The notes: generated from the sequence alone by a model not told the origin. DNA of 39,500 bases from Candidatus Woesebacteria bacterium (GCA_017992725.1 JAGOOB010000002.1:1-39500), one strand, 5' to 3'; shown: positions 353-21,517, numbered from the stretch's first letter. Made by a program: numbers and translations.

Positions 353-2326
353 TTAACTGGTCTTAAATTGTTTGGCTAAAAGAAATGACCAAACTCCAGT
401 GGCTAAGAAAAACAAACCAACCATTAATAAGCTCATGGTTTCAAATACCGAACCAGCATTGTAAGTGCCACTTTCCGTGGAAACTACTGTTTCTCTAGCG
501 CTTTCGGTGGCGATGGGAGTAGGAGTTGGGCTTACACTCGGCGTAATTGACGGAACATAGGGGTTACCACTGCCATATGGTAAAGTTGTTGTATCAGCAG
601 CGGCAATAGTGCTGGTTTCCTCCTCTGCTTGCTGAACATCATCACTAGCACTTACTCTAAAATCATAACTCTCCCGAACTTCTTCTCCAGTGTTTGGATC
701 TACGTATGTGTAAGTTACGGTATGTTCACCTGGACTTAAACTTTGTTCGAGACTGGCAATGTCTAACACTAATTCACCATTAGCATCTGTTGCTTTCACT
801 GTTTCTATTGCTGTATCAGAATTAACTTCGATTTTAACGGTAACATTAGGTGGTAAATTAGTTTTAATGATTGGTTGAGTGGAGTTAATGACAATGTCTT
901 CTTCTTCCCCAACACTCGTCAAATCTAAAGTCCGATCTTGTTCGTTTAGCTCTCCAATTACAGAAGAATCTTGACTTTCTACATTTTGATTAATTGCGGT
1001 ACTCTCTGTAGACTCTTGAGCAATTAAAGAATTTTCTGTAGTACTTTCTTCCAATTCAATTTCCTCAGTATCTTCGCTATTTTTTCCAGTGTCTTGATTA
1101 CTTTCACCTAGTAATTCTTCTCTAGTGGCAGACAAATCATCCGTAGAAGCGGCTTCTTGTCCCATAATAATATCTGGCACCGGTTGAGCACTAGTTACAT
1201 TAGTGACTCTACTAGTAATTGAATTTGGTTCAATACCTTGTACCTTGATTGATAGCACACTGTCTTCATTTACTTCCGGGTAACCATTCAAACTCAAATT
1301 AAAAGCATTGGCCAAAGAAACTGCCCAACTCCCTGAAGATTTGACTAAGGTAGATAAAGTGCTAGCTCCTTCTACAGTCACAAAAACAATCGCTCCTTCA
1401 CCAGGCTGTCCATTCGCTTGACTCACCGTACCGTAAATAGTTTGATTGTTCGGGGAGACACCACCGGGGTCGCTAGCTGTTTTGATCTGAAAGGGATTTC
1501 CTCCATTATCAAAAGTTGTATTACTACCAGTGCCAAGCAGATAATAATAGGTAGTATTAGGTTCTAGACCCTTAACAGTAATATGATGAAGGCGGTAAGG
1601 TTTAATTACTCCCGACAACTGATCTCTGTCATCACTGACTTGTTTTTTTATATCGTTAGGGCTAGTGCCATATTTGATAAAAGCGATTGTTTCTTCGTCA
1701 GTATAGAAAGAGACAGTAAATGACTTATTGGTAATATTGCTATTGGTAATATTCTTGGGAGTCGTTTCTGGAGTTGCTCGAGGAGCAAATAGACCAGTTC
1801 CATTACCAAAGAAAATAACACCAATCACCAACGACACAACTAAAAGTAATATCCCTAAGATGGTTGGTATTTCTTTTTTACCAGAGCTCTTCTTTACGTT
1901 CTTTTCTGATTTATCTTTTTGCTTTTTTCCTTTTTTAGCAATTTTGCCTTCTTTTCTAATTCCAATTTGCTCGGTTGGTACTAGTTTTTGATCATTAGTT
2001 GTTGGTAAGGACCGACCTGGATAGATGCTAGATTGGCTGGATGCGCCCAGATTATTTGCAACTGGACTGACTGGTTTTTGGCCGATAGTACTCCCAATTG
2101 GCCGTTGAACAGATGTATTGGTTATTGGTTGTGGTGCAGGTGCGCCTGCTACTGCCGGTTTGAAACTTGGGCTATTGGGTGAAGCAAATTTTTGATTCTC
2201 CATCATTGGAGCCGGATTTTTTACAGGAGTGTTTGTTTGAGCAGTTACAATTGGTGGGGGCACTGGCTTAGGCAAATGTTGACTAAGTTTAGTAGCCGCT
2301 GATTGATTATTATTTACAACTTGCAT
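353..2326 (-). CDS. Large cell-surface protein with a Pro/Lys-rich N-terminal tail, a TM anchor, an FN3 (purple-acid-phosphatase-N-like) domain, beta-sandwich domains, acidic linkers and a C-terminal hydrophobic anchor
   Basis: Long ORF. ATG at 2326 (MQVVNNNQ) is preferred over the TTG at 2344. TM segment IPTILGILLLVVSLVIGVIFFG. FN3-like FTVSFYTDEETIAFIKYGTS...HHITVKGLEPNTTYYYLLG. CarboxypepD_reg-like IYGTVSQANGQPGEGAIVFV. Ig-like VTVKIEVNSD...HTVTYTYVDPNTGEE. C-terminal MSLLMVGLFFLATGVWSFLLAKQFKTS. Confidence 0.6.
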   Translation of the reverse strand: MQVVNNNQSAATKLSQHLPKPVPPPIVTAQTNTPVKNPAPMMENQKFASPNSPSFKPAVAGAPAPQPITNTSVQRPIGSTIGQKPVSPVANNLGASSQSSIYPGRSLPTTNDQKLVPTEQIGIRKEGKIAKKGKKQKDKSEKNVKKSSGKKEIPTILGILLLVVSLVIGVIFFGNGTGLFAPRATPETTPKNITNSNITNKSFTVSFYTDEETIAFIKYGTSPNDIKKQVSDDRDQLSGVIKPYRLHHITVKGLEPNTTYYYLLGTGSNTTFDNGGNPFQIKTASDPGGVSPNNQTIYGTVSQANGQPGEGAIVFVTVEGASTLSTLVKSSGSWAVSLANAFNLSLNGYPEVNEDSVLSIKVQGIEPNSITSRVTNVTSAQPVPDIIMGQEAASTDDLSATREELLGESNQDTGKNSEDTEEIELEESTTENSLIAQESTESTAINQNVESQDSSVIGELNEQDRTLDLTSVGEEEDIVINSTQPIIKTNLPPNVTVKIEVNSDTAIETVKATDANGELVLDIASLEQSLSPGEHTVTYTYVDPNTGEEVRESYDFRVSASDDVQQAEEETSTIAAADTTTLPYGSGNPYVPSITPSVSPTPTPIATESARETVVSTESGTYNAGSVFETMSLLMVGLFFLATGVWSFLLAKQFKTS

Positions 2327-2393
2327 ATCAAAACCAAGACACAAAAAGTGCCTTAATATTACTTTATACGAATTAAAAATAGATCACAAGGCG

Positions 2394-2443
2394 AAAAAAA
2401 ACCAAACAAAAAACCAATCATTTTAATAAATTTATTGAATGAT
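2394..2443 (-). terminator. Weak AT-only hairpin followed by a T-rich tract (minus strand), after the PilN/PilO-like genes
   Basis: atcatt (2417-2422) pairs with aatgat (2438-2443) around the perfect 12-bp palindrome aataaatttatt (2425-2436). On the minus strand it is followed by TGGTTTTTTGTTTGGTTTTTTTT. The stem has no GC pairs, so it is weak. Confidence 0.25.
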
Positions 2444-2475
2444 CAATTATTTTTTGATATTAATTAGCGAGTAAA

Positions 2476-2865
2476 TTAAAAAGAAGCTTCTTCCACTAAC
2501 ACTTCTTGATCGAGCATGGCACTATTGGTAGCTAAGTTGCTAATATCAGTAAACACGCCTATTTCACCTCGTTTTTCATCACCACTGACTAAATAAACAT
2601 AAATTGGAAAAATACTCAGCTCTTCATCGGTTATGGCCCGTTTTTCTTCAATCATAGAAAAAACTTCAACGTCGAGACGAGGTATCAGTGGTTTAGCCAA
2701 CTCAGTCAACTGCTGATCAATTTTAACTTGTTTTTGAGAAGTTAATATACTGACAGCCGTCCAGATTAATACCGCTACCAAAAATAATATTCCAGCCCAC
2801 AAAATGCTTTTCTGTCGCCGTAATCGGTTAAGCTCTTGTTTTAGTCTGGCTCTTTCTTTATTCAT
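2476..2865 (-). CDS. Single-pass membrane protein, function unknown (third gene of the PilN/PilO-like set)
   Basis: 129-aa ORF with a basic N-terminus and one TM (ILWAGILFLVAVLIWTAVSIL). Its ATG overlaps the stop of the upstream gene by 8 nt. Confidence 0.45.
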   Translation of the reverse strand: MNKERARLKQELNRLRRQKSILWAGILFLVAVLIWTAVSILTSQKQVKIDQQLTELAKPLIPRLDVEVFSMIEEKRAITDEELSIFPIYVYLVSGDEKRGEIGVFTDISNLATNSAMLDQEVLVEEASF

Positions 2866-3496
2866 TTTGATCCACTGTTGAACTTAACACGTAATAAGGT
2901 AAAGAAACTCTTAACGTGGCAGATAAATTATCTGTTTCCGTCATTCTTTCTACTACTACCTGATCTACTATAATTACTTGACGGATATTCATGATTTTTT
3001 CTACAAACTCTCTAATCTGCAAGTAACTACCAATCACTTCAATATTAATCGGTAAAAACTCTCTTTGATAATCTTTAAAATTATTAGTCAGTGATTCTTC
3101 TTTAACTGCTCCTGGCATTGTGGATATCGACATTGTATTAATCACAAGTTGTTCTTCTCCAGCTAGTTTTTCCAATTTTTTTAATGATTTGACCACATCC
3201 AATCGTCGAGGAATCGCTTCTTCCAGTAAATAAAATTGAGATTGATGCAGGGTATATTGTTCCTGTGCAGTAGCCAAACTAGCTAATTTCAGGTTCATTT
3301 GCTCGCTCAATTCCTTTTTATCTTCAATTTCTTTAACCAACTCAGCCATGGTGATTAGAGTCGGACGAATGGCAAAAACAGCAAAGAGAATGACAATTAG
3401 CACTGACAAAATAAGTTCTATAGAAACTCTGGCAATAGGCTTTTGATAAAAGTCCATTAAAACTGCTGTTAGTTGTGCTTGATCCGTTTTTGCCAT
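2858..3496 (-). CDS. PilO-like type IV pilus assembly protein
   Basis: 212 aa. N-terminal TM (ELILSVLIVILFAVFAI), then a coiled-coil region (EIEDKKELSEQMNLKLASLATAQEQY) and an alpha/beta C-terminal domain. This architecture and its position after a PilN-like gene are typical of PilO. Confidence 0.45.
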   Translation of the reverse strand: MAKTDQAQLTAVLMDFYQKPIARVSIELILSVLIVILFAVFAIRPTLITMAELVKEIEDKKELSEQMNLKLASLATAQEQYTLHQSQFYLLEEAIPRRLDVVKSLKKLEKLAGEEQLVINTMSISTMPGAVKEESLTNNFKDYQREFLPINIEVIGSYLQIREFVEKIMNIRQVIIVDQVVVERMTETDNLSATLRVSLPYYVLSSTVDQNE

Positions 3497-3510
3497 TATT
3501 ATCCAATTAC

Positions 3511-4101
3511 TTATTCAGTAGTTGCTGCTGTTTTAACCACTTTAGCTCTCATATCAAAGGTTAAACCAGGTAAGTTTTCTCCTCTGGATTCAATCTTATC
3601 CATAGCAATATCAGTAAAATAAGGAGAAAGTTTGACATTATTAACCAATACATTTAAGGCTTCCTGAGATAATGCAATACCTGTAAAAAGAACTTCATTT
3701 TGTTTAATCGTCAATTCATCCAAAATTACATTATCGGGAATAGTTTCATTTAAAATAGGAAAAATTTCGATTAAATTTGATTCTTGTTGTAACTGTTTGA
3801 CATCAGCAATTTGAGCTTGTACAAAAAGGAAATTCTCTTCCAAATCGTGATAAGCTTCTATAGCATTTTTTTGCTGATTAATAGTCACATTTAAGTCTGT
3901 TACTTGACGATCTAAAAAGAAACGGGTCAAAAAACTCACAATCACTACTAATTGAGTAAAAATTACTATGTAACGACCAACATTAACCGTCCATTTTAAC
4001 GACCGACCGATAGCTGTCTCAAGGAATGGATCTTTGGGGACAAGGTTGACATCTAATACAACCGGAGTTTGTTTTTTTTTCTTAGACTTGCTACTGGGCA
4101 T
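3511..4101 (-). CDS. PilN-like (fimbrial assembly) protein
   Basis: 196 aa. N-terminal VNLVPKDPF resembles the conserved INLLP motif of PilN. It is followed by a single TM (YIVIFTQLVVIVSFL) and a coiled-coil periplasmic part. Confidence 0.5.
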   Translation of the reverse strand: MPSSKSKKKKQTPVVLDVNLVPKDPFLETAIGRSLKWTVNVGRYIVIFTQLVVIVSFLTRFFLDRQVTDLNVTINQQKNAIEAYHDLEENFLFVQAQIADVKQLQQESNLIEIFPILNETIPDNVILDELTIKQNEVLFTGIALSQEALNVLVNNVKLSPYFTDIAMDKIESRGENLPGLTFDMRAKVVKTAATTE

Positions 4102-4155
4102 TATCTACATTGTAAATTAATTTTATAGAGAATAAAAGAGCTTATCAGAAAAAAA

Positions 4156-5844
4156 TTATTTAGATAATTCGTCTTCAATAGAACTATCAAGCAGTACTTC
4201 TTGAGAATCCTCGAGTACTGGACGCCACTTACCAAATTTAGCAATTAAACTATTAAAGTAACTCAATTCTTTCACATCAAATAAAATGGAAAAATAAAGA
4301 TAGACCAATAAAGCAATGGTACTGGTGGAAACAGTTAAGGCAATTAGATCAACTGTTCTCGTCGTATCAAAAACTACTTCGTCCAAGATCTTAAAGGGCA
4401 AATATAAGAAAACAGCCATAAAGAAACTGGCCAACAAGATTTTTAGCTGAGGCAGAAAGAAATCCGCAAAGGTAAAACATTGAATTTTCTTTTGTAATAA
4501 AATCAACATCAACAATAGTTCAACAAAAGCCGCTACAGTAATTGATATGCCTAAACTGAACACGCCCAGGTTAAAAACATAAATTCCCACAACATTGGTC
4601 ATTAAATATACAAGTACTGAAATAGTAGTCACCATGAAGGGCGTTCTCGTGTCTTTGAGAGCGTAAAAACCACGAATTAATAACTGCACCATCGCTTGGG
4701 CAGTGATTGAAATAGCAATCAATGCTACTACTTTCCCCGTTGCAATCGTGGTTTGCCAAGGAAAGTTAGCCGTACCAAAAACCAAACGTACTGCTGGTAC
4801 TCGCAAAATCAACAATAGCACTGAAGCTGGCATAGCTAAAAAGGAAATCTGGTTAAGTGACTGCAACAGTAATTGATTAAACTTTTTTCTGTTTGCATCA
4901 GCCGACTCCTCTGATAAAAACGGAAAAGAAGCTTGACTAATTGGGACCCCAAAAAACCGAATCGGCAAAGTCATTAATCGTCTTGCTAGATTGATAATCA
5001 CGAAACTTAAATTGCCAATACTAGTAGCAAAAAATCCCATCGCCAAATTTTGTAGTTCTCCTACTCCGACTGTCATTAAGCGAGGGGGCATCATTTTGAA
5101 TAGTTTTTTTACTTCGCTAAAGCGCCAATCAAATGAAGCTTGCCAGCGATAACCAGTTTTTAAAATTAAAGGTAATTGAATGAGCATGTGTAGCGCTGCC
5201 CCAATGACCACACCGAGTCCAGCGGCATAAATACCCAAATATTGAGCTAAAAAGATGGAGGTGATAATAATCCCCAGATTATAAACTAAGGGAGCTATGG
5301 CCGGAATAATAAAGCGTTGATAAGCCTGTAAAATTCCTGTTAAAAAATTGGAAATAGCAAAGAAGAACTGAGCAAATAACATGACTCTAGTCAAATTGAC
5401 GGCAATTTCTACCTGTTCTGGAGTAAATTCAGCCCCTGTCCGAGCCAAAGTAATTGGTCGAGCAAAGATAAAAGCGACAATTGAGAAAAAAGCAAAAATT
5501 AATAATACCAAATTCATAACTGTTGAAGTGAATGTAAAAGCTTTCTTCTTATCCTTCCTTTTTAATTCCGTAAAAAGTGGAATAAAGGCAGCGGACAATG
5601 CTCCAAGAACGATGAGTTGAAAAAGTAAATCTGGAATTTGAAAAGCGACTTGAAAAGCCTCGTAGGCCTGCTGACCCTCAATATTATTAAAAAAGAGCTT
5701 AATTAAGACCCTTTCTCTCAGCAAACCTAATAACGAAGAAGAAATATTGGCCACTGTAATAATAAAAGCGGCTGATAAAATCGAATTTTGTTTTTTTGCC
5801 ATCCAGTAAGAATTAGCTTTAAAAATTTTATTAAATGAAATCAT
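4156..5844 (-). CDS. murJ: Lipid II flippase MurJ (MviN family, MOP superfamily)
   Basis: 562-aa polytopic membrane protein. N-terminal SAAFIITVANISSSLLGLLRERVLIKLF and ...AFQIPDLLFQL...GALSAAFIPLF are characteristic MurJ/MviN motifs. Confidence 0.85.
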   Translation of the reverse strand: MISFNKIFKANSYWMAKKQNSILSAAFIITVANISSSLLGLLRERVLIKLFFNNIEGQQAYEAFQVAFQIPDLLFQLIVLGALSAAFIPLFTELKRKDKKKAFTFTSTVMNLVLLIFAFFSIVAFIFARPITLARTGAEFTPEQVEIAVNLTRVMLFAQFFFAISNFLTGILQAYQRFIIPAIAPLVYNLGIIITSIFLAQYLGIYAAGLGVVIGAALHMLIQLPLILKTGYRWQASFDWRFSEVKKLFKMMPPRLMTVGVGELQNLAMGFFATSIGNLSFVIINLARRLMTLPIRFFGVPISQASFPFLSEESADANRKKFNQLLLQSLNQISFLAMPASVLLLILRVPAVRLVFGTANFPWQTTIATGKVVALIAISITAQAMVQLLIRGFYALKDTRTPFMVTTISVLVYLMTNVVGIYVFNLGVFSLGISITVAAFVELLLMLILLQKKIQCFTFADFFLPQLKILLASFFMAVFLYLPFKILDEVVFDTTRTVDLIALTVSTSTIALLVYLYFSILFDVKELSYFNSLIAKFGKWRPVLEDSQEVLLDSSIEDELSK

Positions 5845-5918
5845 ATGAGTAGCTTAATTATAAGAAAAAATCAGAAAAAAAGGAAATCTAAGATTTAATT
5901 AGCACCAACCAGGGAAAC

Positions 5919-5947
5919 TTGTATGATCGATTCTTTTCTTGTATAAT
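5919..5947 (+). promoter_or_regulatory. Sigma-70-type promoter candidate for rpsT-lepA
   Basis: TTGTAT (5919-5924), a 17-nt spacer, then TATAAT (5942-5947), about 30 nt upstream of the rpsT ATG. An AAGGA RBS lies at about 5969. Confidence 0.4.
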
Positions 5948-5978
5948 CACGCCTTGTTAAATTGAAAGAAGGAAATCA

Positions 5979-6221
5979 ATGCCAATTTTAAAAAATGCCA
6001 AAAAAGCCCTAAGAGTTAGCGAGAGAAAAAATATTGTTAATCGCAAAGTAAAATCTCAAGTTAAAACTGCCATAGATCAAGCAATCAAAGAACCAAGTCA
6101 AGAAAATTTAGCTAAGGCTAGTAGTAAAATTGATCGGGCTGTTAAGAAAAATTTAATGCACAAAAATAAAGCGGCCCGCGTCAAATCTAGACTCGCCAAG
6201 CTCAAAAGCAAATCGTCATAA
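5979..6221 (+). CDS. rpsT: 30S ribosomal protein S20
   Basis: 80-aa basic protein. MPILKNAKKALRVSERKNIVNRKVKSQVKTAIDQ matches the S20 N-terminus. Its stop overlaps the lepA ATG (TAATG). Confidence 0.9.
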   Translation: MPILKNAKKALRVSERKNIVNRKVKSQVKTAIDQAIKEPSQENLAKASSKIDRAVKKNLMHKNKAARVKSRLAKLKSKSS

Positions 6222-13468: not shown

Positions 13469-15808
13469 CTAAAACAACTGCGCTCGCCGCCCAATTTCTT
13501 CCTCAAGTAATTCTCGATCTTTTCCATATTTAAGACGCGATAATTTTTTAATTAATTCAGCTAATTTTGGATTCATTCTGGCTTCTTGAGCTTTCATATC
13601 CTTTAGTAGAGACATGCTAAAAGCGCTAACCGGTTGATTATCAACAATAGTTTTGACATAGGCATGATATTTTTCAACATTGGCCAAATCTGTTTCATTA
13701 AACGTTGGAGCAAATTCATGTTGCAAAAAATTGGCGTCAGTCACGCCAACACGAAATGCGACAATCGTGCCTACATTCCCAAAAACAGCATTTTTTATAT
13801 CTTCTTCAATTTGACCAATAAATTGGTTAGCTACGATCAAATTGAGGCGATATTTGCGAGCTTCGGACAAAATTGAAGCAAAATCTTCGGTAGCAAAATT
13901 CTGAAACTCATCAACATAGAGGAAAAAGTCATTGCGTTTTTCCATTGGCACATCTTGACGACTCATGGCTGCGGTTAAAATTTTCGGTACTAAAATCAAA
14001 CCTAAAAACTTAGCATCCTCTTCGCCAATAACACCTTTACTCAAATTACATAAAATAATCTTCTTTTCATCCATCGCCTGACGAAAGTCAAAGGAACTTT
14101 CACTCTGGCCAATAATATTGCGCATAGTTTTATTAGTCACAAAACGACCAAATTTTGAAACAATGTAATCCAAAACCTCTGATTTGTGAAAATCGCTAGT
14201 GTTGGCTATTTGATCAGTCCAGTAGCGCTTAACCATTGGATCTTTGACAAAGGGTAAATAATCCTCGACATATTTAGCATCAGTTAAAATTCTCACCAAC
14301 TCAATAAATGTAGCGCCTGGCTTAGACATCACAGTCAACATGCCATTGCGAATAGCATGTTCAAAACGCGGACCAACAATACCTGTACGATGTGGATCAT
14401 AAAGTTTATACATTAGACCAATCACTGCGCTGGCCATAAACTGTTGTTGTTCTTCATTGTGGGCTTCCATAATGTTCATCCCCAGTGGTCGCTCAGTGTC
14501 TGCCGGATTAAAATAAATAACATCCTCAGCTCTTTTCGGAGGCATCAATTTCAATAAATCTTCAACCAAATCACCGTGTGGATCAATCACAGCCACTCCA
14601 TGACCAGCCTCAATATCTTGTAAAGCTAAGTCTTTGAGAAACTCAGATTTACCGGTACCAGTTTTCCCAATAATGTAAGTGTGACGGCGACGATCCTCAA
14701 GTGACATATAAATACCCCGCTCAACACCCCGGTACTTAGATTTGCCCAGGTACAAACCTTTGGTGGGAATTTTGTTGGGGGCTGGGGCACTTTTAGCACT
14801 TAACCACTGGATATGATGCGTTTCCACTGTCTTATTGGGAAAGTGCATGATGGTCGCTAGCTCTTCAGTATTGAGAATAATTTTTTTGAAAGTGAGAAAA
14901 GATAAATAACGATAAATAAAATCAATCATAAATAAATGTTTGAATAAAATTTTGGCTCGTTTGAAATTGTTATAAGGAGAAGAAAATTGCGAAAAAGCGC
15001 CAATTAAATTATTAAGATGAGCTTTCGCAGTTATCTCGTTGTTGGCTGAAACCACCATCCGAATAGCCACCTTAAAACCAGGTTTACTAATTTTGGTATT
15101 AATTGCTTCAACCTCTTTGGGATCATGAGTAAAACTAGCTGTGTCTGGATCAGCTTCTTGTCTTTTTTGTTTTTGATTATAACGAGCACCTCTTTTTTGC
15201 CAACTTTTTCCAGTTGGTTGAAGCAAAATTTGCAAGGTAGCTCCCTCACCATCACCCATCTTGGATAAAGCGCTCGTGATTAACGACAAACCATCAGTGG
15301 CTAAATCCTTGTAAGTCTTAATCGGATAAAAATTAGCTTTTTCTAATTTCAACTCACCAAAAGCGACTCTCCCCGTATCATTGAAAATATTGACTTCATC
15401 GACCTCATTAATAGCCGCTGAGGGATAGGCGCCATTAATTTGCTTTTCCACTAAATCTTGAATGTCTCGTGAACAAGTGACGTAGAATGCAATATCTTCC
15501 TTCATCCCAACTATTTCAAAACCAATAGTTTCTTCTGGTTCTAAAAAAGACAAGGTGCCGACTTTTTTTAAAGAATACAGGCCAGCAAACATTTGTTCTG
15601 CTGCATCAATCTTAATTTCATTACTTTTGGGTAATTTCACCAGTAAAGTTACGAAATTAAGAGCATATTTCTCTCGGCGTCTATTTTTGATATAAGTACC
15701 TAAAAGATAAAGTAAAAAAGCTGCTATCCCCAATAGAATCAAGCCTGTAAAAAGTCTGAGCACAAACACATTGACCTGAGATAATAGTTGTTCTCCCTGT
15801 GGTGACAT
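13469..15808 (-). CDS. Membrane-anchored VirD4/TraD-type (type IV coupling protein-like, FtsK/HerA superfamily) P-loop ATPase
   Basis: 779 aa. N-terminal TM (LILLGIAAFLLYLLGTYI). Walker A IIGKTGTGKSEF. Walker B/TraG-D_C-like FFLYVDEFQNFATEDFASILSEARKYRLNLIVANQFIGQI. Confidence 0.75.
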   Translation of the reverse strand: MSPQGEQLLSQVNVFVLRLFTGLILLGIAAFLLYLLGTYIKNRRREKYALNFVTLLVKLPKSNEIKIDAAEQMFAGLYSLKKVGTLSFLEPEETIGFEIVGMKEDIAFYVTCSRDIQDLVEKQINGAYPSAAINEVDEVNIFNDTGRVAFGELKLEKANFYPIKTYKDLATDGLSLITSALSKMGDGEGATLQILLQPTGKSWQKRGARYNQKQKRQEADPDTASFTHDPKEVEAINTKISKPGFKVAIRMVVSANNEITAKAHLNNLIGAFSQFSSPYNNFKRAKILFKHLFMIDFIYRYLSFLTFKKIILNTEELATIMHFPNKTVETHHIQWLSAKSAPAPNKIPTKGLYLGKSKYRGVERGIYMSLEDRRRHTYIIGKTGTGKSEFLKDLALQDIEAGHGVAVIDPHGDLVEDLLKLMPPKRAEDVIYFNPADTERPLGMNIMEAHNEEQQQFMASAVIGLMYKLYDPHRTGIVGPRFEHAIRNGMLTVMSKPGATFIELVRILTDAKYVEDYLPFVKDPMVKRYWTDQIANTSDFHKSEVLDYIVSKFGRFVTNKTMRNIIGQSESSFDFRQAMDEKKIILCNLSKGVIGEEDAKFLGLILVPKILTAAMSRQDVPMEKRNDFFLYVDEFQNFATEDFASILSEARKYRLNLIVANQFIGQIEEDIKNAVFGNVGTIVAFRVGVTDANFLQHEFAPTFNETDLANVEKYHAYVKTIVDNQPVSAFSMSLLKDMKAQEARMNPKLAELIKKLSRLKYGKDRELLEEEIGRRAQLF

Positions 15809-15834
15809 ACTTGATTACTTCATTCTAGCAAGTT

Positions 15835-16530
15835 TTAAACGTCTGCGCTATTCTCGACTTCTTCTTTATATAATACTGCTCCAGAAAAAATCTTCTTAAT
15901 TTTTTCTGCCCATTCGGCTAACCAGCGTAAACTAAAATGAATGCCTTTTTTCTTGGCTTCCTCCTTTTGTCTCTCGGTAATCGGCAAAACCACTACCGGT
16001 TTAATTTGCTTGGGGAAAGCTAGTGCCTGACTGGCTAATTGATCAATGGTAGCTTGTTCTTTTTTAGCTAGTTTTTCTGCTTGCTCTTGATCATCTTCCT
16101 TAATTTCCACAAGTTCTTGACCAATTTCTGCCATTTCTGCTGATTCACTTGATTTCACTGCTTCAACAGCTACCGCATGTTCTGTGTTAGTTGGCTGTTC
16201 GACTTGTGGCTCTTGGTTGGCTACTACTTCCGTCGCTGATGGTTTTAAACTGTCAATATTTTGATCGAGTTTTAAATCTGGTGAATTGTCCACAACTACC
16301 TGGTTGACCTCCTTTAATTTAGAAAGGCTGGTGGGAGCAGTCGACTGAGAGCGCTGATCTTCTACTTCATCGATAGCCTCTTCAAGCAGATCTAGTGCTT
16401 GTTGATTAGACAATATCTGAGTGTCTTTTTTGGTTGCTAAAGCTTGGGCAGTAAGAAATTGACTTAATTTAGGATATTTTTTTAAATCAACGTCTTGCAA
16501 TAGAGAAGTCTTAGCTCGATCGTTAGGCAT
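15835..16530 (-). CDS. Acidic, low-complexity hypothetical protein
   Basis: The ORF-track start at 16545 is a TTG; the first in-frame ATG is at 16530 (MPNDRAKT). The centre is rich in E/Q/D. The C-terminus (GIHFSLRWLAEWAEKIKKIF) looks structured. No family recognised. Confidence 0.45.
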   Translation of the reverse strand: MPNDRAKTSLLQDVDLKKYPKLSQFLTAQALATKKDTQILSNQQALDLLEEAIDEVEDQRSQSTAPTSLSKLKEVNQVVVDNSPDLKLDQNIDSLKPSATEVVANQEPQVEQPTNTEHAVAVEAVKSSESAEMAEIGQELVEIKEDDQEQAEKLAKKEQATIDQLASQALAFPKQIKPVVVLPITERQKEEAKKKGIHFSLRWLAEWAEKIKKIFSGAVLYKEEVENSADV

Positions 16531-16572
16531 AAAACCATCATACAAGTTTTTGCTTGAAGAAAAAAGAGAGAG

Positions 16573-17085
16573 TTAAAAGAAACTAAAAAATAGCTTAGAT
16601 CCCAAAACCTCATCAGGTAAAGAATTGGGCATCGTCTCTAACACCATGTCTGTCAGAGTTGGTGATTGGTAAATTAATAAATTTTCATCACTTTGATTTA
16701 ATGCTGGTTTAGTTGCTTTTCTAGTACAGTCAATCAGTCTTTGATCTTGAAACCAACAAATATCAATAGCAAATAGCATGTCTTTCATCCAAAATTGGCG
16801 CACTCTTTCTTCTGGAAAAATAAACAACATCCCATCCAATTTTTGACCATCCACTGTGGCTAATTGAGTTCGATTTGATAAGCCTCGTTGGGTTGAAGCT
16901 TCATAGAGAACTACCTCCACTAGTAATTCTTTTTTCGGCCTTGAGAAATAATTTTCTTTTAACACCAATTTGCTCACCTGGCCATCTTTCACAAACAATC
17001 GCCAAAAAGTGGTTTGATAAAAATAAAGACATGAGGCAAGCAGTACTATTAGTAGTATAAGTTTAATAATAATTTTTTTTGTCAT
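16573..17085 (-). CDS. DUF192 (COG1430) family protein with an N-terminal signal/anchor
   Basis: 170 aa. LDGMLFIFPEERVRQFWMKDMLFAIDICWF matches the DUF192 core (M.F......WMKNT..PLDI.F). Confidence 0.6.
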   Translation of the reverse strand: MTKKIIIKLILLIVLLASCLYFYQTTFWRLFVKDGQVSKLVLKENYFSRPKKELLVEVVLYEASTQRGLSNRTQLATVDGQKLDGMLFIFPEERVRQFWMKDMLFAIDICWFQDQRLIDCTRKATKPALNQSDENLLIYQSPTLTDMVLETMPNSLPDEVLGSKLFFSFF

Positions 17086-17107
17086 TTAACGAAGCAAAAA
17101 TTGTCAT

Positions 17108-17602
17108 TTAACGGAATAAAAATAGCAATAGGAAAAAATATAGCAAAGCCACCAACTTAATTATTGAAATCTCCGCTAATGAAATCTCTTTTTTAATTCC
17201 TGGCAAAAAATATTGATTAAAAACTTGCTGTTGGGGAGCTAATTGCCAAATTTCAACCAGGATTACTAAATTAATGGCCATTATAAGTGCTATTCCAGCA
17301 AGGCTACCGGTCGACGTCAACATAAAAATACTCAAAATAGGTAATGCTAATAAAAATAAGGGACTACGAGTAACTAAAAATTTGTTGTCTAATTCCCCAC
17401 CATAAATTTTTTGCAAGTATTTTTCATCGCCCAAAATCAAAAATAGACCAAGACTATAAGCAATAGTCAAAAGTAAAATCTCTGGCCAAACTCTGGCAAT
17501 TTGCCATTGTGCTTTTGCTAACCACCACAAAATAAATAAGATTAGCCCTGCCAAAACAATAAACTTTTTAATTTTTTTTTGTTGTTGATTAAAAACACTC
17601 AT
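17108..17602 (-). CDS. Polytopic membrane protein (hypothetical)
   Basis: 164 aa with 4-5 hydrophobic helices. No recognisable motif. Confidence 0.45.
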   Translation of the reverse strand: MSVFNQQQKKIKKFIVLAGLILFILWWLAKAQWQIARVWPEILLLTIAYSLGLFLILGDEKYLQKIYGGELDNKFLVTRSPLFLLALPILSIFMLTSTGSLAGIALIMAINLVILVEIWQLAPQQQVFNQYFLPGIKKEISLAEISIIKLVALLYFFLLLFLFR

Positions 17603-17631
17603 AAACTAAAGGCAATCTATTAAAATATTAA

Positions 17632-18828
17632 TTATTGATAACCTTTTAGAGATAATATTTTTTGACTAGCTTGATTAACTAGTTTCTGAAAATCTAAAGA
17701 TTCTGCATATTGGGCTTCTAAATCATCAAGTAGACTATTTAGTTGGGCATAATCAAAATCCGCGCCAAACAATAGCACGTGATTACCCGCTTCAATAGCT
17801 TCAATCGCAATTGTTGAAAGATTTTTCTTTTCATTAGTCCCAGGTATATAGCTAGCTGATTCCATCAATAAATCATCAGTTATTAACAAAACTTCAGGAT
17901 AAAATTGAAACAGTTGATCTAAACATTGTTTACTTAAAGAACAAGCTTGACCGGCCAATTTATTCTTTAGGCGCAAATGAGCTGACATTACCCCAATATT
18001 AGGATATTGATCTAATAATCGTTCAAAAATTAAAGTGTCGTCTTGATCCAATTCAACAGTGTCCGCATATAAATACAAGTCTTTTTGACTCCCACCAATA
18101 CCAGGAAAATGTTTTAAAACAGACATTATTTGCCGATTGGAAAAAGCCACAATATATTCTTGGGCAATTTGCACAATTTTATCTGGGTTGTTACCAATCC
18201 TATCGGTTAAAATAGGGTTATTAACAGCAGAGTAATTAACCATTGGCGCCAAAACTAAGTTAATACCCACCTCAGATAATTCTTTTGCTGATTGATTGAA
18301 AAGTTTTCTTCTCTCTCTGGCATTGAGAGGATTGGTGTCTTGCTCCTCATCTATAGAACTCACTGCATTAGTTAATTGCCTCATACTGGGTAAAGGGGTA
18401 AAACCCTCACCACTGAGGCGTTGTACCCGACCACCTTCATGATCAACAGCTAATAAAGGCAAGACAATTTTTTTATTATTTGCATCTAGTAAGCTTTCTT
18501 GGTATTTTTTTGCCGTTGCAAAGTCAATCTCTTCGCCAAAGTAGACAACAAAACCTGGCTGATATTCTTGAATAAGCGCTAAATTGTCATTATCTGCTGG
18601 ATCTTGCTCATTATCTAAAACCAGAGGTAACATTAACATTTGAGTAAGTTTTTCTCTGGTGCTTAATTCGGGAAGATCTAAGTTTTGTTCAGTTTCTTCG
18701 ACTCCTTCGGTGGGTTGGTCAATTACTGGCTCCGGAAAATACTTTAAAAACGGTTGTTCAAAATAATTGTAGGCTAAAAAGCCAGCCAAAAAAAATAAAA
18801 AAACTATTAAAATATTGCGCCACTTCAT
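17632..18828 (-). CDS. Membrane-anchored glycoside hydrolase family 3 N-terminal-domain protein (NagZ-like beta-N-acetylhexosaminidase)
   Basis: 398 aa. N-terminal TM. AVDHEGGRVQRL, KHFPGIGG, GVMSAHL and ITDDLLMES match the GH3/NagZ motifs (DxEGGxVxR, KHFPGxG, TDDLxM nucleophile). Confidence 0.8.
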   Translation of the reverse strand: MKWRNILIVFLFFLAGFLAYNYFEQPFLKYFPEPVIDQPTEGVEETEQNLDLPELSTREKLTQMLMLPLVLDNEQDPADNDNLALIQEYQPGFVVYFGEEIDFATAKKYQESLLDANNKKIVLPLLAVDHEGGRVQRLSGEGFTPLPSMRQLTNAVSSIDEEQDTNPLNARERRKLFNQSAKELSEVGINLVLAPMVNYSAVNNPILTDRIGNNPDKIVQIAQEYIVAFSNRQIMSVLKHFPGIGGSQKDLYLYADTVELDQDDTLIFERLLDQYPNIGVMSAHLRLKNKLAGQACSLSKQCLDQLFQFYPEVLLITDDLLMESASYIPGTNEKKNLSTIAIEAIEAGNHVLLFGADFDYAQLNSLLDDLEAQYAESLDFQKLVNQASQKILSLKGYQ

Positions 18829-18840
18829 AAGTTCATTTTA

Positions 18841-19308
18841 CTAGAATTTTATTTTTTTCTCGCTTGTGGTTTTTTGTTTATCTACAGTAGTTGCTTTTTT
18901 CTTTTTCAATTGGTCAAGCTTCCACATAAATAATTTGGCTTTACTTCGAGCATTTTCCGCATCACTCACAAAAGCCAAGGCTCTCTCCAACAAAGCCCGC
19001 GGATAAGTTTTAGCTAATTTGATGTAAAGTGAGGTATGAGCTTGATCTCCTAACACAGCAGCCAGGTAACAGCCGAAGGCTTGAAACTCTTGACTAATAT
19101 ATTTATTGCTCTCTTTAATAGGGTGTTGGTTTAATAATTCCGCTACTGTACTAAATTGTTTTTTTCGCTGATTACTCTGCTTTTCGACAGTTTTTTCTTT
19201 ACCAAATAATTTGGTTTCATCATCATTAGAATTGTCTTGAAAAAGAGATTGTTTAACCACTGTGATTGATTGGGTTGGTTTTTGACTTTTCCGTTTTTTA
19301 ACAGACAT
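18841..19308 (-). CDS. Basic hypothetical protein, possibly DNA-binding
   Basis: 155 aa with Lys-rich termini. The helical core is FGCYLAAVLGDQAHTSLYIKLAKTYPRALLERALAFVSDAENARSKAKLFMWKL. It loosely recalls DnaD/replisome-organiser-type helical domains, but there is no firm family call. Confidence 0.4.
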   Translation of the reverse strand: MSVKKRKSQKPTQSITVVKQSLFQDNSNDDETKLFGKEKTVEKQSNQRKKQFSTVAELLNQHPIKESNKYISQEFQAFGCYLAAVLGDQAHTSLYIKLAKTYPRALLERALAFVSDAENARSKAKLFMWKLDQLKKKKATTVDKQKTTSEKKIKF

Positions 19309-19340
19309 AAATGCTGCTTCTATTTTAAGTCAAACACCAA

Positions 19341-20030
19341 TTAAAGAATAATTTGAGCTAAAATTTGGCGATTTTTTTCAACCAGTTTTGACTTAAATAA
19401 ACCCCGCTCTTCAATCAATACTTTCAACTTATTATCTCCAGCCAAAGTTTGGTAAAAATCTAATTGAGTTTGCAGTATTTCTTTGGCTTCTTTCATATTT
19501 TTTTTACCATTATTGGTAAATGCTGCCAACCAATCAGCACTAATTACGTACTGCCCTAGATTGTAAACTTCTTCACCCCCAGCAATCGTAAAACAAACTT
19601 GATTAGCCAAATGCATGTTGTGTGGCCTGACCATGTGACCTCTTACTCCAGATTTTAATTCTTTCGGATCACTAAAGGGCAAAATACCCACGTATTCGAA
19701 ATTTAATCGATCGGCCAAAGCTGCTACGTGTTGCTGAGCGCTAGCATTCGTTTCATCCCAATCATTAAGCTCAAGATTTTCTTTTAACCAAGCATTCTCT
19801 TCACTAGCAGCAAATTTCAATTTTTTATCTAACTGTTCCTTAGGAAAATTACTATCAATCACTGTCTGTAGAGAGTTGATAACTTCAGAAAAATGCGGCA
19901 AGCCAAATCCAGAACCTAAAAAAGCGAAGCGGCGACCATAATTGAGTTGGACACCTTCATCGCCATCAACTACCACTAAGGGCACAGGCTGAAAGACGGC
20001 AGGCTCAGCTGATTGATTGCTCTTACTCAT
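19341..20030 (-). CDS. Hypothetical protein (229 aa)
   Basis: ATG at 20030 (MSKSNQSAEP) is preferred over the TTG at 20117. The composition looks globular. No family recognised. Confidence 0.5.
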   Translation of the reverse strand: MSKSNQSAEPAVFQPVPLVVVDGDEGVQLNYGRRFAFLGSGFGLPHFSEVINSLQTVIDSNFPKEQLDKKLKFAASEENAWLKENLELNDWDETNASAQQHVAALADRLNFEYVGILPFSDPKELKSGVRGHMVRPHNMHLANQVCFTIAGGEEVYNLGQYVISADWLAAFTNNGKKNMKEAKEILQTQLDFYQTLAGDNKLKVLIEERGLFKSKLVEKNRQILAQIIL

Positions 20031-20053
20031 GAAATTCCTTTTGTTAATTAAAA

Positions 20054-20206
20054 CTACTGAGTCATCGCTTGCACTGCAGCTAAATATTGATTCATCTCTT
20101 TTTCTACCTGTTCCCAATCACCATTAGCTTCACGAATTGCATTAAATAACAGCTCCATGTCGATTAATAATTGGTCGTCAGTAACAATCATTCTTTGTTT
20201 TGCCAT
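20054..20206 (-). CDS. Small ORF (50 aa) below the ORF-track cutoff, the first gene of the array
   Basis: Read by hand: ATG at 20206, TAG at 20056-20054, giving MAKQRMIVTDDQLLIDMELLFNAIREANGDWEQVEKEMNQYLAAVQAMTQ. The composition is helical and acidic. It ends 23 nt before the next gene and is preceded by an extended -10 box. Confidence 0.3.
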   Translation of the reverse strand: MAKQRMIVTDDQLLIDMELLFNAIREANGDWEQVEKEMNQYLAAVQAMTQ

Positions 20207-20214
20207 AGGCCTTT

Positions 20215-20223
20215 ATTATACCA
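20215..20223 (-). promoter_or_regulatory. Extended -10 promoter element (TGGTATAAT)
   Basis: The minus strand reads TGGTATAAT, matching TGnTATAAT. The hexamer ends 8 nt before the ATG at 20206, implying a leaderless or near-leaderless transcript. Confidence 0.3.
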
Positions 20224-20230
20224 TTAGTCG

Positions 20231-20255
20231 AGAAAAAAAGCCAGTGATCGGCTTA
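20231..20255 (-). terminator. Rho-independent terminator after rpsA
   Basis: Hairpin with a 5-bp stem (aagcc/ggctt) and a 7-nt loop at 20238-20254. It is followed by TTTTTTT on the minus strand. An A-run on one side and a T-run on the other make it potentially bidirectional. Confidence 0.5.
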
Positions 20256-20320: not shown

Positions 20321-21430
20321 TTATTTATAAGCAATTGGCAAATCTGTCTGCACAATCGATAAACTCATCCGTCGTTGCTCAGGCACTACATTTTCCACGT
20401 TGACCGTCACTTCATCACCCACTTTTAATTCCTTATTGGGATCAAGTTTGGTGGAATGAATTAAACCATCAACACCCTTTTCCACGTTAACAAAAACACC
20501 AAATGGTTCAATGCGAGTTACTTTACCAGTGAAAGTAGTTCCAGCAGCATAACGTTCTGCTAAGGTACTCCAGGGGTCTTCTTCTAATTGTTTAATTGAT
20601 AGATTTAATTTATTAGTTCTCTCATCAATACCAAGCACCTTGACTTTCACTCGATCACCAACCTTATGATAATCTCTGGGATGATTAACTTTTTCCCAAG
20701 AAATTTCGGAGATGTGAACTAAACCCTCGATATAACCAGTACTATCTTTGCCATTTTCGTCCTTGACAGGAACTTCAACCGTGACAAACAAACCAAAGTG
20801 CATCACTCCAGAAACAACTCCTTCATAGATTTCACCTTCTCGGACTGCTTCAATAGCCAAATCTTTTTGAGCCAATTCTTTAGCTTCACTAACGTGTCTT
20901 TCAGAGAAGATTAAACGATTTTTCTCACGATCAACCTCGATCGCTTTAACTTTGAAAGTTTCACCTTTTAAGGAAGGAAGCTTACCCATATACTGGCGAC
21001 CAAACTGGCTAGACGGTACAAAACCACGCACCCCATTAACTAAGACAATCAATCCGCCACGATTTAATTCAACGCCTTTGGCTTCTAAGTCTAAATCTTT
21101 ATCAAGTGCTTCCTCAAAATATTCCCATTTGGCATCGGAAGCGGCACCTTTAAGAGATAATAGTACTTGACCATTGTCGTAATCAGTGGAAATAACAATA
21201 CCCTTAATTTCATCACCAACTTTTAAATCTTCAATAAAATCATTGGCAAATTCAAATTCTTTATCAGCTACATAGGCTTCAGTTTTAGCCCCCAAATCAA
21301 TTACTAAATTTTTCTTATTTTTTTCAACGATAACACCAGTAACCGTGTCTCCTTTTTGGGGAACAACTAAATTATCAGCATTTGCTTTTAATAGTTCCTC
21401 CATTGTCATTTTTTTGGTACTCTTAGCCAT
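20321..21430 (-). CDS. rpsA: 30S ribosomal protein S1 (four S1 domains)
   Basis: ATG at 21430 (MAKSTKKMTMEELL) with an AAAGGAAC RBS; the track start at 21508 is a TTG. Repeated S1/OB motifs are present (G.V.G.V......G..V.L..G..G..H.SE). Confidence 0.9.
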   Translation of the reverse strand: MAKSTKKMTMEELLKANADNLVVPQKGDTVTGVIVEKNKKNLVIDLGAKTEAYVADKEFEFANDFIEDLKVGDEIKGIVISTDYDNGQVLLSLKGAASDAKWEYFEEALDKDLDLEAKGVELNRGGLIVLVNGVRGFVPSSQFGRQYMGKLPSLKGETFKVKAIEVDREKNRLIFSERHVSEAKELAQKDLAIEAVREGEIYEGVVSGVMHFGLFVTVEVPVKDENGKDSTGYIEGLVHISEISWEKVNHPRDYHKVGDRVKVKVLGIDERTNKLNLSIKQLEEDPWSTLAERYAAGTTFTGKVTRIEPFGVFVNVEKGVDGLIHSTKLDPNKELKVGDEVTVNVENVVPEQRRMSLSIVQTDLPIAYK

Positions 21431-21517
21431 ATCAAAATAGTTCCTTTCTTTTTGATCTGTGTATTGTAACACAAGTTTCCGGTTGTTTCCTCTAGAAAAA
21501 GATGGCAAAATAGAAAT

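Follow-up and report, generated by a model that had tools for sequence, protein, structure and literature searches.

The eight tightly packed genes that are encoded on the minus strand between positions 20206 and 13469 of a 39,500-nt stretch of DNA from Candidatus Woesebacteria bacterium (GCA_017992725.1, JAGOOB010000002.1:1-39500; hereafter the window) are probably not the parts of one machine. With reasonably good confidence this array (g1 to g8 in the order of transcription; Table 1) can be considered a lineage-specific juxtaposition of three independent gene strings, in which the pair g7-g8, a coupling-type motor ATPase (g8) and its small partner (g7), is the sole functional unit. The first string would be rpsA-g1-g2. 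The second would be a class-wide string of the type pth-(MFS)-g3-(GH3)-g5, which appears to be lengthened within the family by (Lgt)-DUF192, and the third, g7-g8, would be a pair of genes that is retained throughout the phylum Patescibacteria. An earlier note, made from the sequence of the window alone, had proposed all eight products as a candidate envelope-spanning apparatus. This proposal did not survive the comparison with related genomes, as g1 and g2 segregate with rpsA, g3 and g5 with pth, and g6 occurs fused to Lgt (prolipoprotein diacylglyceryl transferase). The role in translocation that came with the proposal is thereby lost for an eight-gene machine and is retained for the g7-g8 pair, for which macromolecule translocation is still the best guess.

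The genomes of species representatives were scanned with the ATPase, which yielded 68 loci, and the neighbouring genes were searched in these loci by tblastn and iterated profile hidden Markov models (HMMs). Loci with an ATPase identity of at least 65%, which correspond to approximately one GTDB family, are referred to as close loci. The ATPase g8 is 72% identical to its counterpart in a genome of the same family and 55-62% identical to those in genomes of the same order and of the same class. Next to ATPases with less than 65% identity these searches found none of the genes g1 to g6, but g7 alone. Outside the family the flanks of the ATPase are formed by SpoIID, a RecF-like protein and NAD(P)HX dehydratase, by PheT and Wzy_C, by CysS, Dus, CorA and DnaX, or by BtuR (corrinoid adenosyltransferase), and those loci which retain only g7-g8 exhibit unrelated genes upstream. 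The conservation of the neighbours in related genomes, on which the earlier note had made its proposal depend, is therefore absent for six of the seven neighbours and present for g7.

Both g1 and g2 are present in only 13-14 loci and there always beside rpsA. In 13 loci g1 is 78-92% identical, each time next to an rpsA which itself is 63-92% identical; g1 is a real and very conserved small protein, possibly translated from a leaderless mRNA. In one locus (L021) rpsA-g1-g2 is located 10 kb away from g3-g8. The genes g3, g4, g5 and g6 are each present in 34-40 close loci, and about 34 loci retain the order g3-g8. In the broader portion of the family the order of this block is pth, MFS, g3, GH3, g5, Lgt, DUF192, g7, g8; in the source assembly (Patescibacteria, 660 kb, 67 contigs, 90.7% complete) pth-MFS is found on a separate contig, C66. 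Within the class, g3 was detected in 66 of the 81 genomes. Among 14 loci from other families (L106-L119) it is located downstream of pth, directly or one gene later, in 12 and close to g5 in nine, and no ATPase was found within 7 kb of g3 in these 14 loci. Six genomes, which belong to five other families, have g3 and the ATPase on the same contig at a distance of 16-30 kb from each other. The association of g1-g2 with rpsA and of g3 and g5 with pth as well as these separations of 16-30 kb suggest that the array consists of three strings which lie side by side in one family.

For g3, a product of the second string, an alignment reveals a conserved helical C-terminal domain (residues ~70-148) with 17 invariant columns, and its AlphaFold2 (AF2) model has a predicted local distance difference test (pLDDT) value of 77. 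The idea of g3 being a DNA-binding protein was dropped after a profile search against the PDB gave only chance matches. Foldseek returned no match with E < 5 for the model, the best suggestion being a SopB fragment with a probability of 0.11. Among the 120 clusters listed, of 5,884 matched, no Pfam domain or name was found and all were termed 'hypothetical'. Judged by its sequence relatives, g3 is a large unnamed class-wide family, which is normally located after pth. Lgt is a housekeeping lipoprotein enzyme. It is encoded by a separate gene before DUF192 (g6) in L045, and Lgt-DUF192 fusion proteins are present at L022:7805-9205 and L044:7898-9175. These fusions link g6 with the processing of lipoproteins and not with the ATPase, and they point to a role of DUF192 in lipoprotein or membrane biogenesis. 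In the source genome, at the completeness given above, lgt was not detectable. The recognisable members of the second string, GH3, Lgt and DUF192, are envelope-maintenance or housekeeping genes.

Among the close loci, the sequence upstream of the ATPase was readable in 47, and in all of these g7 is located directly before g8. It is a fast-evolving gene with 55-60% identity where g8 has 91%. Its C-terminus carries a conserved module (Table 1), and the motif model of this module also matches the partner from a genome of the same order (8e-7). For a phylum-wide set, 60 orthologue loci gave 57 usable ATPase genes. Loci from Gracilibacteria and Peribacteria (L063, L064) were left out of the analysis, as they are uninterpretable with open reading frame (ORF) calls under table 11. 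The gene upstream of the ATPase is on the same strand in 51 of the 57 orthologues. When a partner was strictly defined (at most 320 aa, no hydrophobic segment, grand average of hydropathy below -0.5, gap below 150 nt), 31 of the 57 orthologues had one, compared with 23 of 436 control genes from the same loci (odds ratio 21, Fisher p = 2.5e-19). The gap to the partner amounts to no more than 15 nt, or the stop and start codons overlap, in 28 of the 57. At least four partner families, which differ between classes, could be distinguished, each with a conserved C-terminal motif: family A, which includes g7 (VVVLPIT...S[IV]RWLVEW..K..K.F.G.VVYR), family B (WLRILPGVN.FFLEQEAKIKTDKI), family C (DPYLLDEFHDTLVDELY) and family D (DPYQEEEDSE). 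Gene order and sequence comparison support the view that g7-g8 is a conserved two-gene module.

Three ATPases without a membrane helix (L160, L161 and L093) carry N-terminal extensions that are matched by partner models. The model of family C matches the fused extensions in two Saccharibacteria genomes (L160, E 2.5e-4; L161, E 0.02), and these are its sole matches among 6,071 ORFs. The search for fused ATPases with the g7 C-terminal motif model, conducted with the HMMER filters off, yielded a weak match of family A to the extension of the L093 ATPase (E 0.026), which is the best match outside the family. In the databases searched, which comprised ~2,000-6,000 ORFs, the three extensions were the sole matches outside the partner families. 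A comparable N-terminal extension without a motif match is present in the L094 ATPase. Fusions of partner and ATPase appear to be present in three genomes and perhaps in a fourth.

Sequence and predicted structure identify g8 as a P-loop motor with a membrane anchor, which belongs to the VirD4/TrwB type of coupling proteins and has a VirB4-like layout of two domains. It matches the Pfam family PF10412 (TrwB_AAD_bind; 9e-10, 38.4 bits at a cut-off of 20.5) as well as DUF87 and TraG-D_C, and its Walker A and Walker B (VDEF; D633, E634) motifs are invariant in 22 homologues, down to 40% identity. Its only sequence relatives in the PDB are TrwB (1e-5) and DotL. The scores against NCBIfam equivalogs are below the respective cut-offs (TIGR03743, 59 bits versus 366; CD1115-type VirD4, 38.7 versus 250), and with 20 bits against TIGR00929 (VirB4; cut-off 643) g8 is by sequence not a member of VirB4. 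In the AF2 model (pLDDT 82) an alpha/beta domain is predicted at residues ~52-320, and the helices of the insert (452-580) are positioned between the strands 430-433 and 584-588. Foldseek matched this model best with full-length TrwK/VirB4 chains (5e-14) at a template modelling (TM) score of ~0.3, so that an equivalence of the N-terminal domain with that of VirB4 is only suggested. HerA (1e-10), TrwB (3e-10, TM(target) ~0.6), DotL and Cag-beta followed, with 8dol, which is CagZ/Cag-beta, and 6sz9 being among the matches.

With TrwB (R388), VirD4, TraD and DotL, g8 shares the nucleotide-binding domain of the FtsK/HerA superfamily, the N-terminal anchor and, according to the AF2 model, the all-alpha insert. 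Unlike these type IV coupling proteins (T4CPs), it has a single N-terminal hydrophobic helix, where two transmembrane helices are usual, and an extra alpha/beta domain of ~280 residues (DUF8128) between anchor and motor. It is also a chromosomal core gene in ~99% of Patescibacteria, and no relaxase or type IV secretion system (T4SS) is encoded alongside it in the window. With VirB4/TrwK it would share the layout of an N-terminal alpha/beta domain and a C-terminal motor, yet its sequence signature is T4CP-like and the source genome has a separate VirB4-like gene. Members of the ATPase family, 2-5 per genome, were detected in 199 of the 201 Patescibacteria genomes. A function of g8 as a substitute for FtsK was rejected, as a bona fide FtsK is encoded on contig C67.

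The source genome also harbors a Patescibacteria-type T4SS cluster (C13:123-11483), which comprises a 1,139-aa protein, a PrgI-like protein, a 384-aa protein without Pfam match and a VirB4-like ATPase and is located directly upstream of dnaA and a gene that by eye resembles dnaN. As the PrgI-like and VirB4-like genes are on C13 by dnaA, g8 is located outside of the T4SS cluster of its genome, and no coupling protein is encoded beside this cluster. A T4SS cluster next to dnaA has been published for Patescibacteria (Quinonero-Coronel et al. 2025, PMC12102498).

A motor-domain tree unites all ATPases of the partner type and the fused ones in a single clade (Shimodaira-Hasegawa-like approximate likelihood ratio test, SH-aLRT, 100). 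Short paralogues, sigma-linked paralogues and the C23 copy of the source genome are placed outside of this partner clade. One Saccharibacteria sigma-linked paralogue, which is cut at a contig end, was omitted from the tree; two other sigma-linked ATPases fall outside the clade of g8. The C23 copy is a second DUF8128/T4CP paralogue (714 aa), which has no membrane helix and is 37% identical to g8. Within C23:5081-10542 (minus strand) it is located 17 nt downstream of a gene for a 1,099-aa polytopic membrane protein without Pfam match, and this protein could represent a membrane partner of another kind for that clade. A distinct line of ATPase paralogues (L058, L101, L165) is regularly preceded by a gene of 345-360 aa, which in L165 contains Sigma70_r4 and HARE-HTH according to Pfam, with the L058 copy being similar by eye. 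This arrangement resembles that of SEML1_0294/0293 of Southlakia epibionticum.

Orphan VirD4-like genes have already been described for the phylum. Quinonero-Coronel et al. (2025, PMC12102498) counted 5,713 homologues of the VirD4 type, which are spread over 2,918 of 3,035 Patescibacteria genomes at approximately two per genome. No more than 148 are located close to virB4, and an exaptation is suggested; VirB4 was found in 2,417 of the 3,035 genomes and relaxases are nearly absent. The widespread family described there is the gene family of g8. The same article cites a non-essential t4cp copy in S. epibionticum, which by inference is SEML1_0293 with its sigma-linked-type gene arrangement. In the transposon sequencing (Tn-seq) data for this species, SEML1_0142, an ATPase with a TraM-recognition domain, was scored essential (Wang et al. 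2023, PMC10633639, Table S1). Also essential is SEML1_0141, a hypothetical protein of 139 aa encoded 12 nt upstream, while SEML1_0293, preceded by a sigma-like gene, is listed as non-essential. As far as these data go, SEML1_0142 resembles g8 in having ~380 residues before the P-loop domain and a small gene just upstream, as g8 has g7; with 1,019 aa it is longer than g8, and it has no Pfam match in the table of these authors. We infer that g7/g8 correspond to SEML1_0141/0142. No mention of the upstream partner, the fusions, the DUF8128/VirB4-like N-terminal domain or the split into partner and sigma clades was found in the passages of PMC12102498 that were consulted. In contrast to the orphan VirD4-like genes, the partner, the fusions and the paralogue clades are features for which no earlier description was found.

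With regard to a possible mechanism, g8 would form a hexameric ATP-driven ring at the membrane. The C-terminal module of g7 is predicted to bind to the N-terminal, membrane-proximal side of g8, since the fused ATPases carry the partner where the membrane helix would otherwise be. By this, g7 would act as an adaptor or regulator, or possibly as a substrate, and the pair may recruit or drive a macromolecular substrate via the T4SS beside dnaA or via a different route. Small acidic partners of T4CPs are known from other bacteria, namely CagZ with Cag-beta in H. pylori and IcmS/IcmW/LvgA with DotL in Legionella. The putative adaptor or regulator role of g7 is drawn by analogy with CagZ/Cag-beta or IcmSW/DotL, where a small acidic protein is likewise encoded near the T4CP. 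Unlike CagZ and IcmSW, g7 is mostly of low complexity with a short conserved C-terminal module.

That all eight products form one envelope-spanning apparatus for the translocation of DNA or protein is very improbable. The tight packing of the array, its one candidate promoter, the lack of intergenic terminators and the presence of a motor ATPase and a wall-active enzyme in a set with four membrane-anchored products are what such an apparatus would be expected to show, and contigs assembled from RNA libraries extend over all eight genes and span the rpsA/g1, g1/g2, g2/g3 and g4/g5 borders, which makes a co-transcription of all eight genes in the source genome plausible. Yet the genes g1-g2 go with rpsA and g3 and g5 with pth, DUF192 is found fused to Lgt, g3 gave no match to a DNA-binding fold and orthologous ATPases elsewhere are flanked by unrelated genes. 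Another explanation would be an envelope operon specific to the family, made up of g3-g8 or of g4-g8, for which the ATPase was recruited to work with enzymes of the wall and of lipoproteins, for example as an energy source for local wall remodelling or for the export of surface proteins. The block g3-g8 stays together in ~34 loci of the family while both flanks change (upstream pgk-rpsA-g1-g2 or pth-MFS, downstream rRNA or MacB/FtsX), and envelope enzymes also adjoin members of the ATPase family elsewhere, namely SpoIID (L029), Wzy_C (L051), a DUF4015 glycosidase-like protein (L060, L061) and an S11-like peptidase (L062). Nevertheless, such an operon seems quite improbable, as all loci with this block have an ATPase of at least 65% identity and thus belong to about one family, for which inherited collinearity is a sufficient explanation. 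Moreover, the block includes Lgt with its well-defined separate function, and the neighbouring envelope genes differ from one lineage to the next in every case.

The cohesion of g3-g8 despite its changing flanks, by which a link between the ATPase and envelope genes specific to the family is possible, and the envelope enzymes next to other family members nonetheless count against three independent strings with g7-g8 as the sole functional unit, and so do several properties of the data. In the relatives genes were simply called as the longest ORFs under table 11. The partner families of different classes have no detectable sequence similarity to each other, so that they are grouped as one partner by their position, size and composition. 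Of the three fusion matches, two fall short of the usual thresholds for inclusion. The binding of g7 to g8 is a prediction, and the correspondence of g7/g8 to SEML1_0141/0142 was deduced from the arrangement of the genes and by elimination rather than from a comparison of sequences. Finally, the RNA data consist of assembled contigs and are to be read at the level of contigs; their depth over the array equals that over the adjacent 23S rRNA and rpsA, and as it equals that of the 23S a carry-over of DNA is possible.

For the g7-g8 pair itself it is conceivable, albeit rather doubtful, that it is a classical coupling protein with its adaptor which serves only the Patescibacteria-type T4SS on C13. 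Some conjugative systems place their T4CP genes away from virB4. The source genome has PrgI-like and VirB4-like genes without a T4CP alongside, g8 exhibits the T4CP fold including the all-alpha domain insert, and T4CPs with small acidic partners exist. An exclusive service to this T4SS is at odds with VirD4-type genes being commoner than VirB4 (2,918 versus 2,417 of 3,035 genomes), with 2-5 paralogues per genome and with the near absence of relaxases from the phylum. An even more speculative and rather unlikely idea is that the partner-clade ATPase and its partner constitute an essential T4SS-independent machine specific to Patescibacteria, in which a motor of the conjugation type would be re-used as a housekeeping translocase at the envelope of the epibiont. 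If this were true, the 'non-essential t4cp' of S. epibionticum would be a member of a different paralogue clade.

A large part of bacterial diversity belongs to the Patescibacteria, which live as epibionts and have minimal genomes. The retention of the g8 family in ~99% of them at 40-90% identity argues for a central role. So far VirD4-like genes are listed in the literature only as orphan coupling proteins of unclear role with one copy being dispensable. The module of g7 and g8 provides a concrete unit in this respect: the family splits into clades, and the clade of g8 nearly always comes with a small partner, which is sometimes fused. A pair of similar arrangement was scored essential in the one species that is genetically tractable. 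To see no machine in the surrounding 'operon' also avoids over-annotating GH3, DUF192 and the genes without assigned function as secretion components.

All eight ORFs of the array were recovered as the earlier note had described them. The gaps between them, from g1 to g8, amount to 23, 32, 12, 29, 22, 42 and 26 nt. The extended -10 box (TGGTATAAT), which had been proposed as the start of transcription, is indeed present behind the hairpin and T-run of rpsA, and no terminator-like site was found in any intergenic gap of the array, as had been stated. Four weak terminator-like sites of the minus strand are located inside the array, all within coding sequence; across the whole scanned region 11 such sites were observed versus 6.5 +/- 2.3 expected. 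Profile scans with Pfam and NCBIfam bore out the assigned protein families (GH3, DUF192, T4CP-like ATPase) and gave no family match for g1, g2, g3, g5 and g7. The product of g4 matches PF00933 (GH3 N-terminal domain; 8e-27, 94.9 bits, above the cut-off of 27), remains with 103.8 bits under the cut-off of 207 for the NCBIfam NagZ equivalog and has a hydrophobic N-terminal segment (residues 1-24). Its description as a muramidase-type enzyme has to be corrected, as GH3/NagZ-type enzymes are beta-N-acetylglucosaminidases and not muramidases. The product of g6 matches PF02643 (DUF192, COG1430; 5e-14, 52.6 bits, above the cut-off of 27). It also proved right that the window contains no T4SS, relaxase or pilus gene; VirB4-like/PrgI, FtsK and PilB/PilT genes are present elsewhere in the genome.

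Table 1. Features of the array and its surroundings, with positions counted from the first nucleotide of the window.
Feature	Position	Strand	Description
g1	20054..20206	-	50 aa; acidic, pI (isoelectric point) 4.2
g2	19341..20030	-	229 aa; without family; companion of rpsA/g1
g3	18841..19308	-	155 aa; basic, pI 9.9
g4	17632..18828	-	398 aa; membrane-anchored GH3 (NagZ-like), beta-N-acetylglucosaminidase-type
g5	17108..17602	-	164 aa; polytopic membrane protein, ~4 hydrophobic segments
g6	16573..17085	-	170 aa; membrane-anchored DUF192 protein
g7	15835..16530	-	231 aa; acidic, pI 4.8; low-complexity over most of its length
g7 C-terminal conserved module	15847..15999	-	residues 178-228 (~50 residues); motif model VVVLPIT...S[IV]RWL[AV]EW..K..K.FSG.V.YK
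g8	13469..15808	-	779 aa; membrane-anchored DUF8128 and coupling-protein-like ATPase
g8 N-terminal hydrophobic helix	15683..15787	-	residues 8-42 (hydropathy); one long helix at residues 3-49 predicted by AF2
g8 alpha/beta N-terminal domain	14819..15661	-	residues ~50-330; PF26449/DUF8128 in the precomputed annotation of the database
g8 nucleotide-binding domain	13472..14761	-	all-alpha insert, helices 452-580
g8 Walker A	14645-14668	-	GKTGTGKS; invariant in alignment
rpsA	20321-21508	-	upstream of the array
Terminator-like hairpin and T-run	20238..20254	-	ends rpsA
Extended -10 box	20215..20223	-	TGGTATAAT; 8 nt before the ATG of g1; candidate promoter of the array
tRNA-Ala	13304-13230	-	downstream of g8
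23S	13047-10135	-	after tRNA-Ala
5S	10020-9905	-	after 23S

In two sequencing runs from different studies, contigs of the RNA libraries end near the ATG of g1 (20200, 20205, 20206), which is the predicted start point, and one contig of a third run reads through 20200-20206. Contig ends were also found near the ATG of g3 (19306, 19308) in RNA libraries of different studies. The ends at both sites could be transcript ends or assembly breaks. A dip of the depth over g7 is probably due to strain divergence. The best sigma-70-like match of the region (TTGGCA-16-TATAAT, 11/12) is located at positions 15176-15203 of the window (minus strand), inside the coding sequence of g8, and is probably a chance match in AT-rich DNA.

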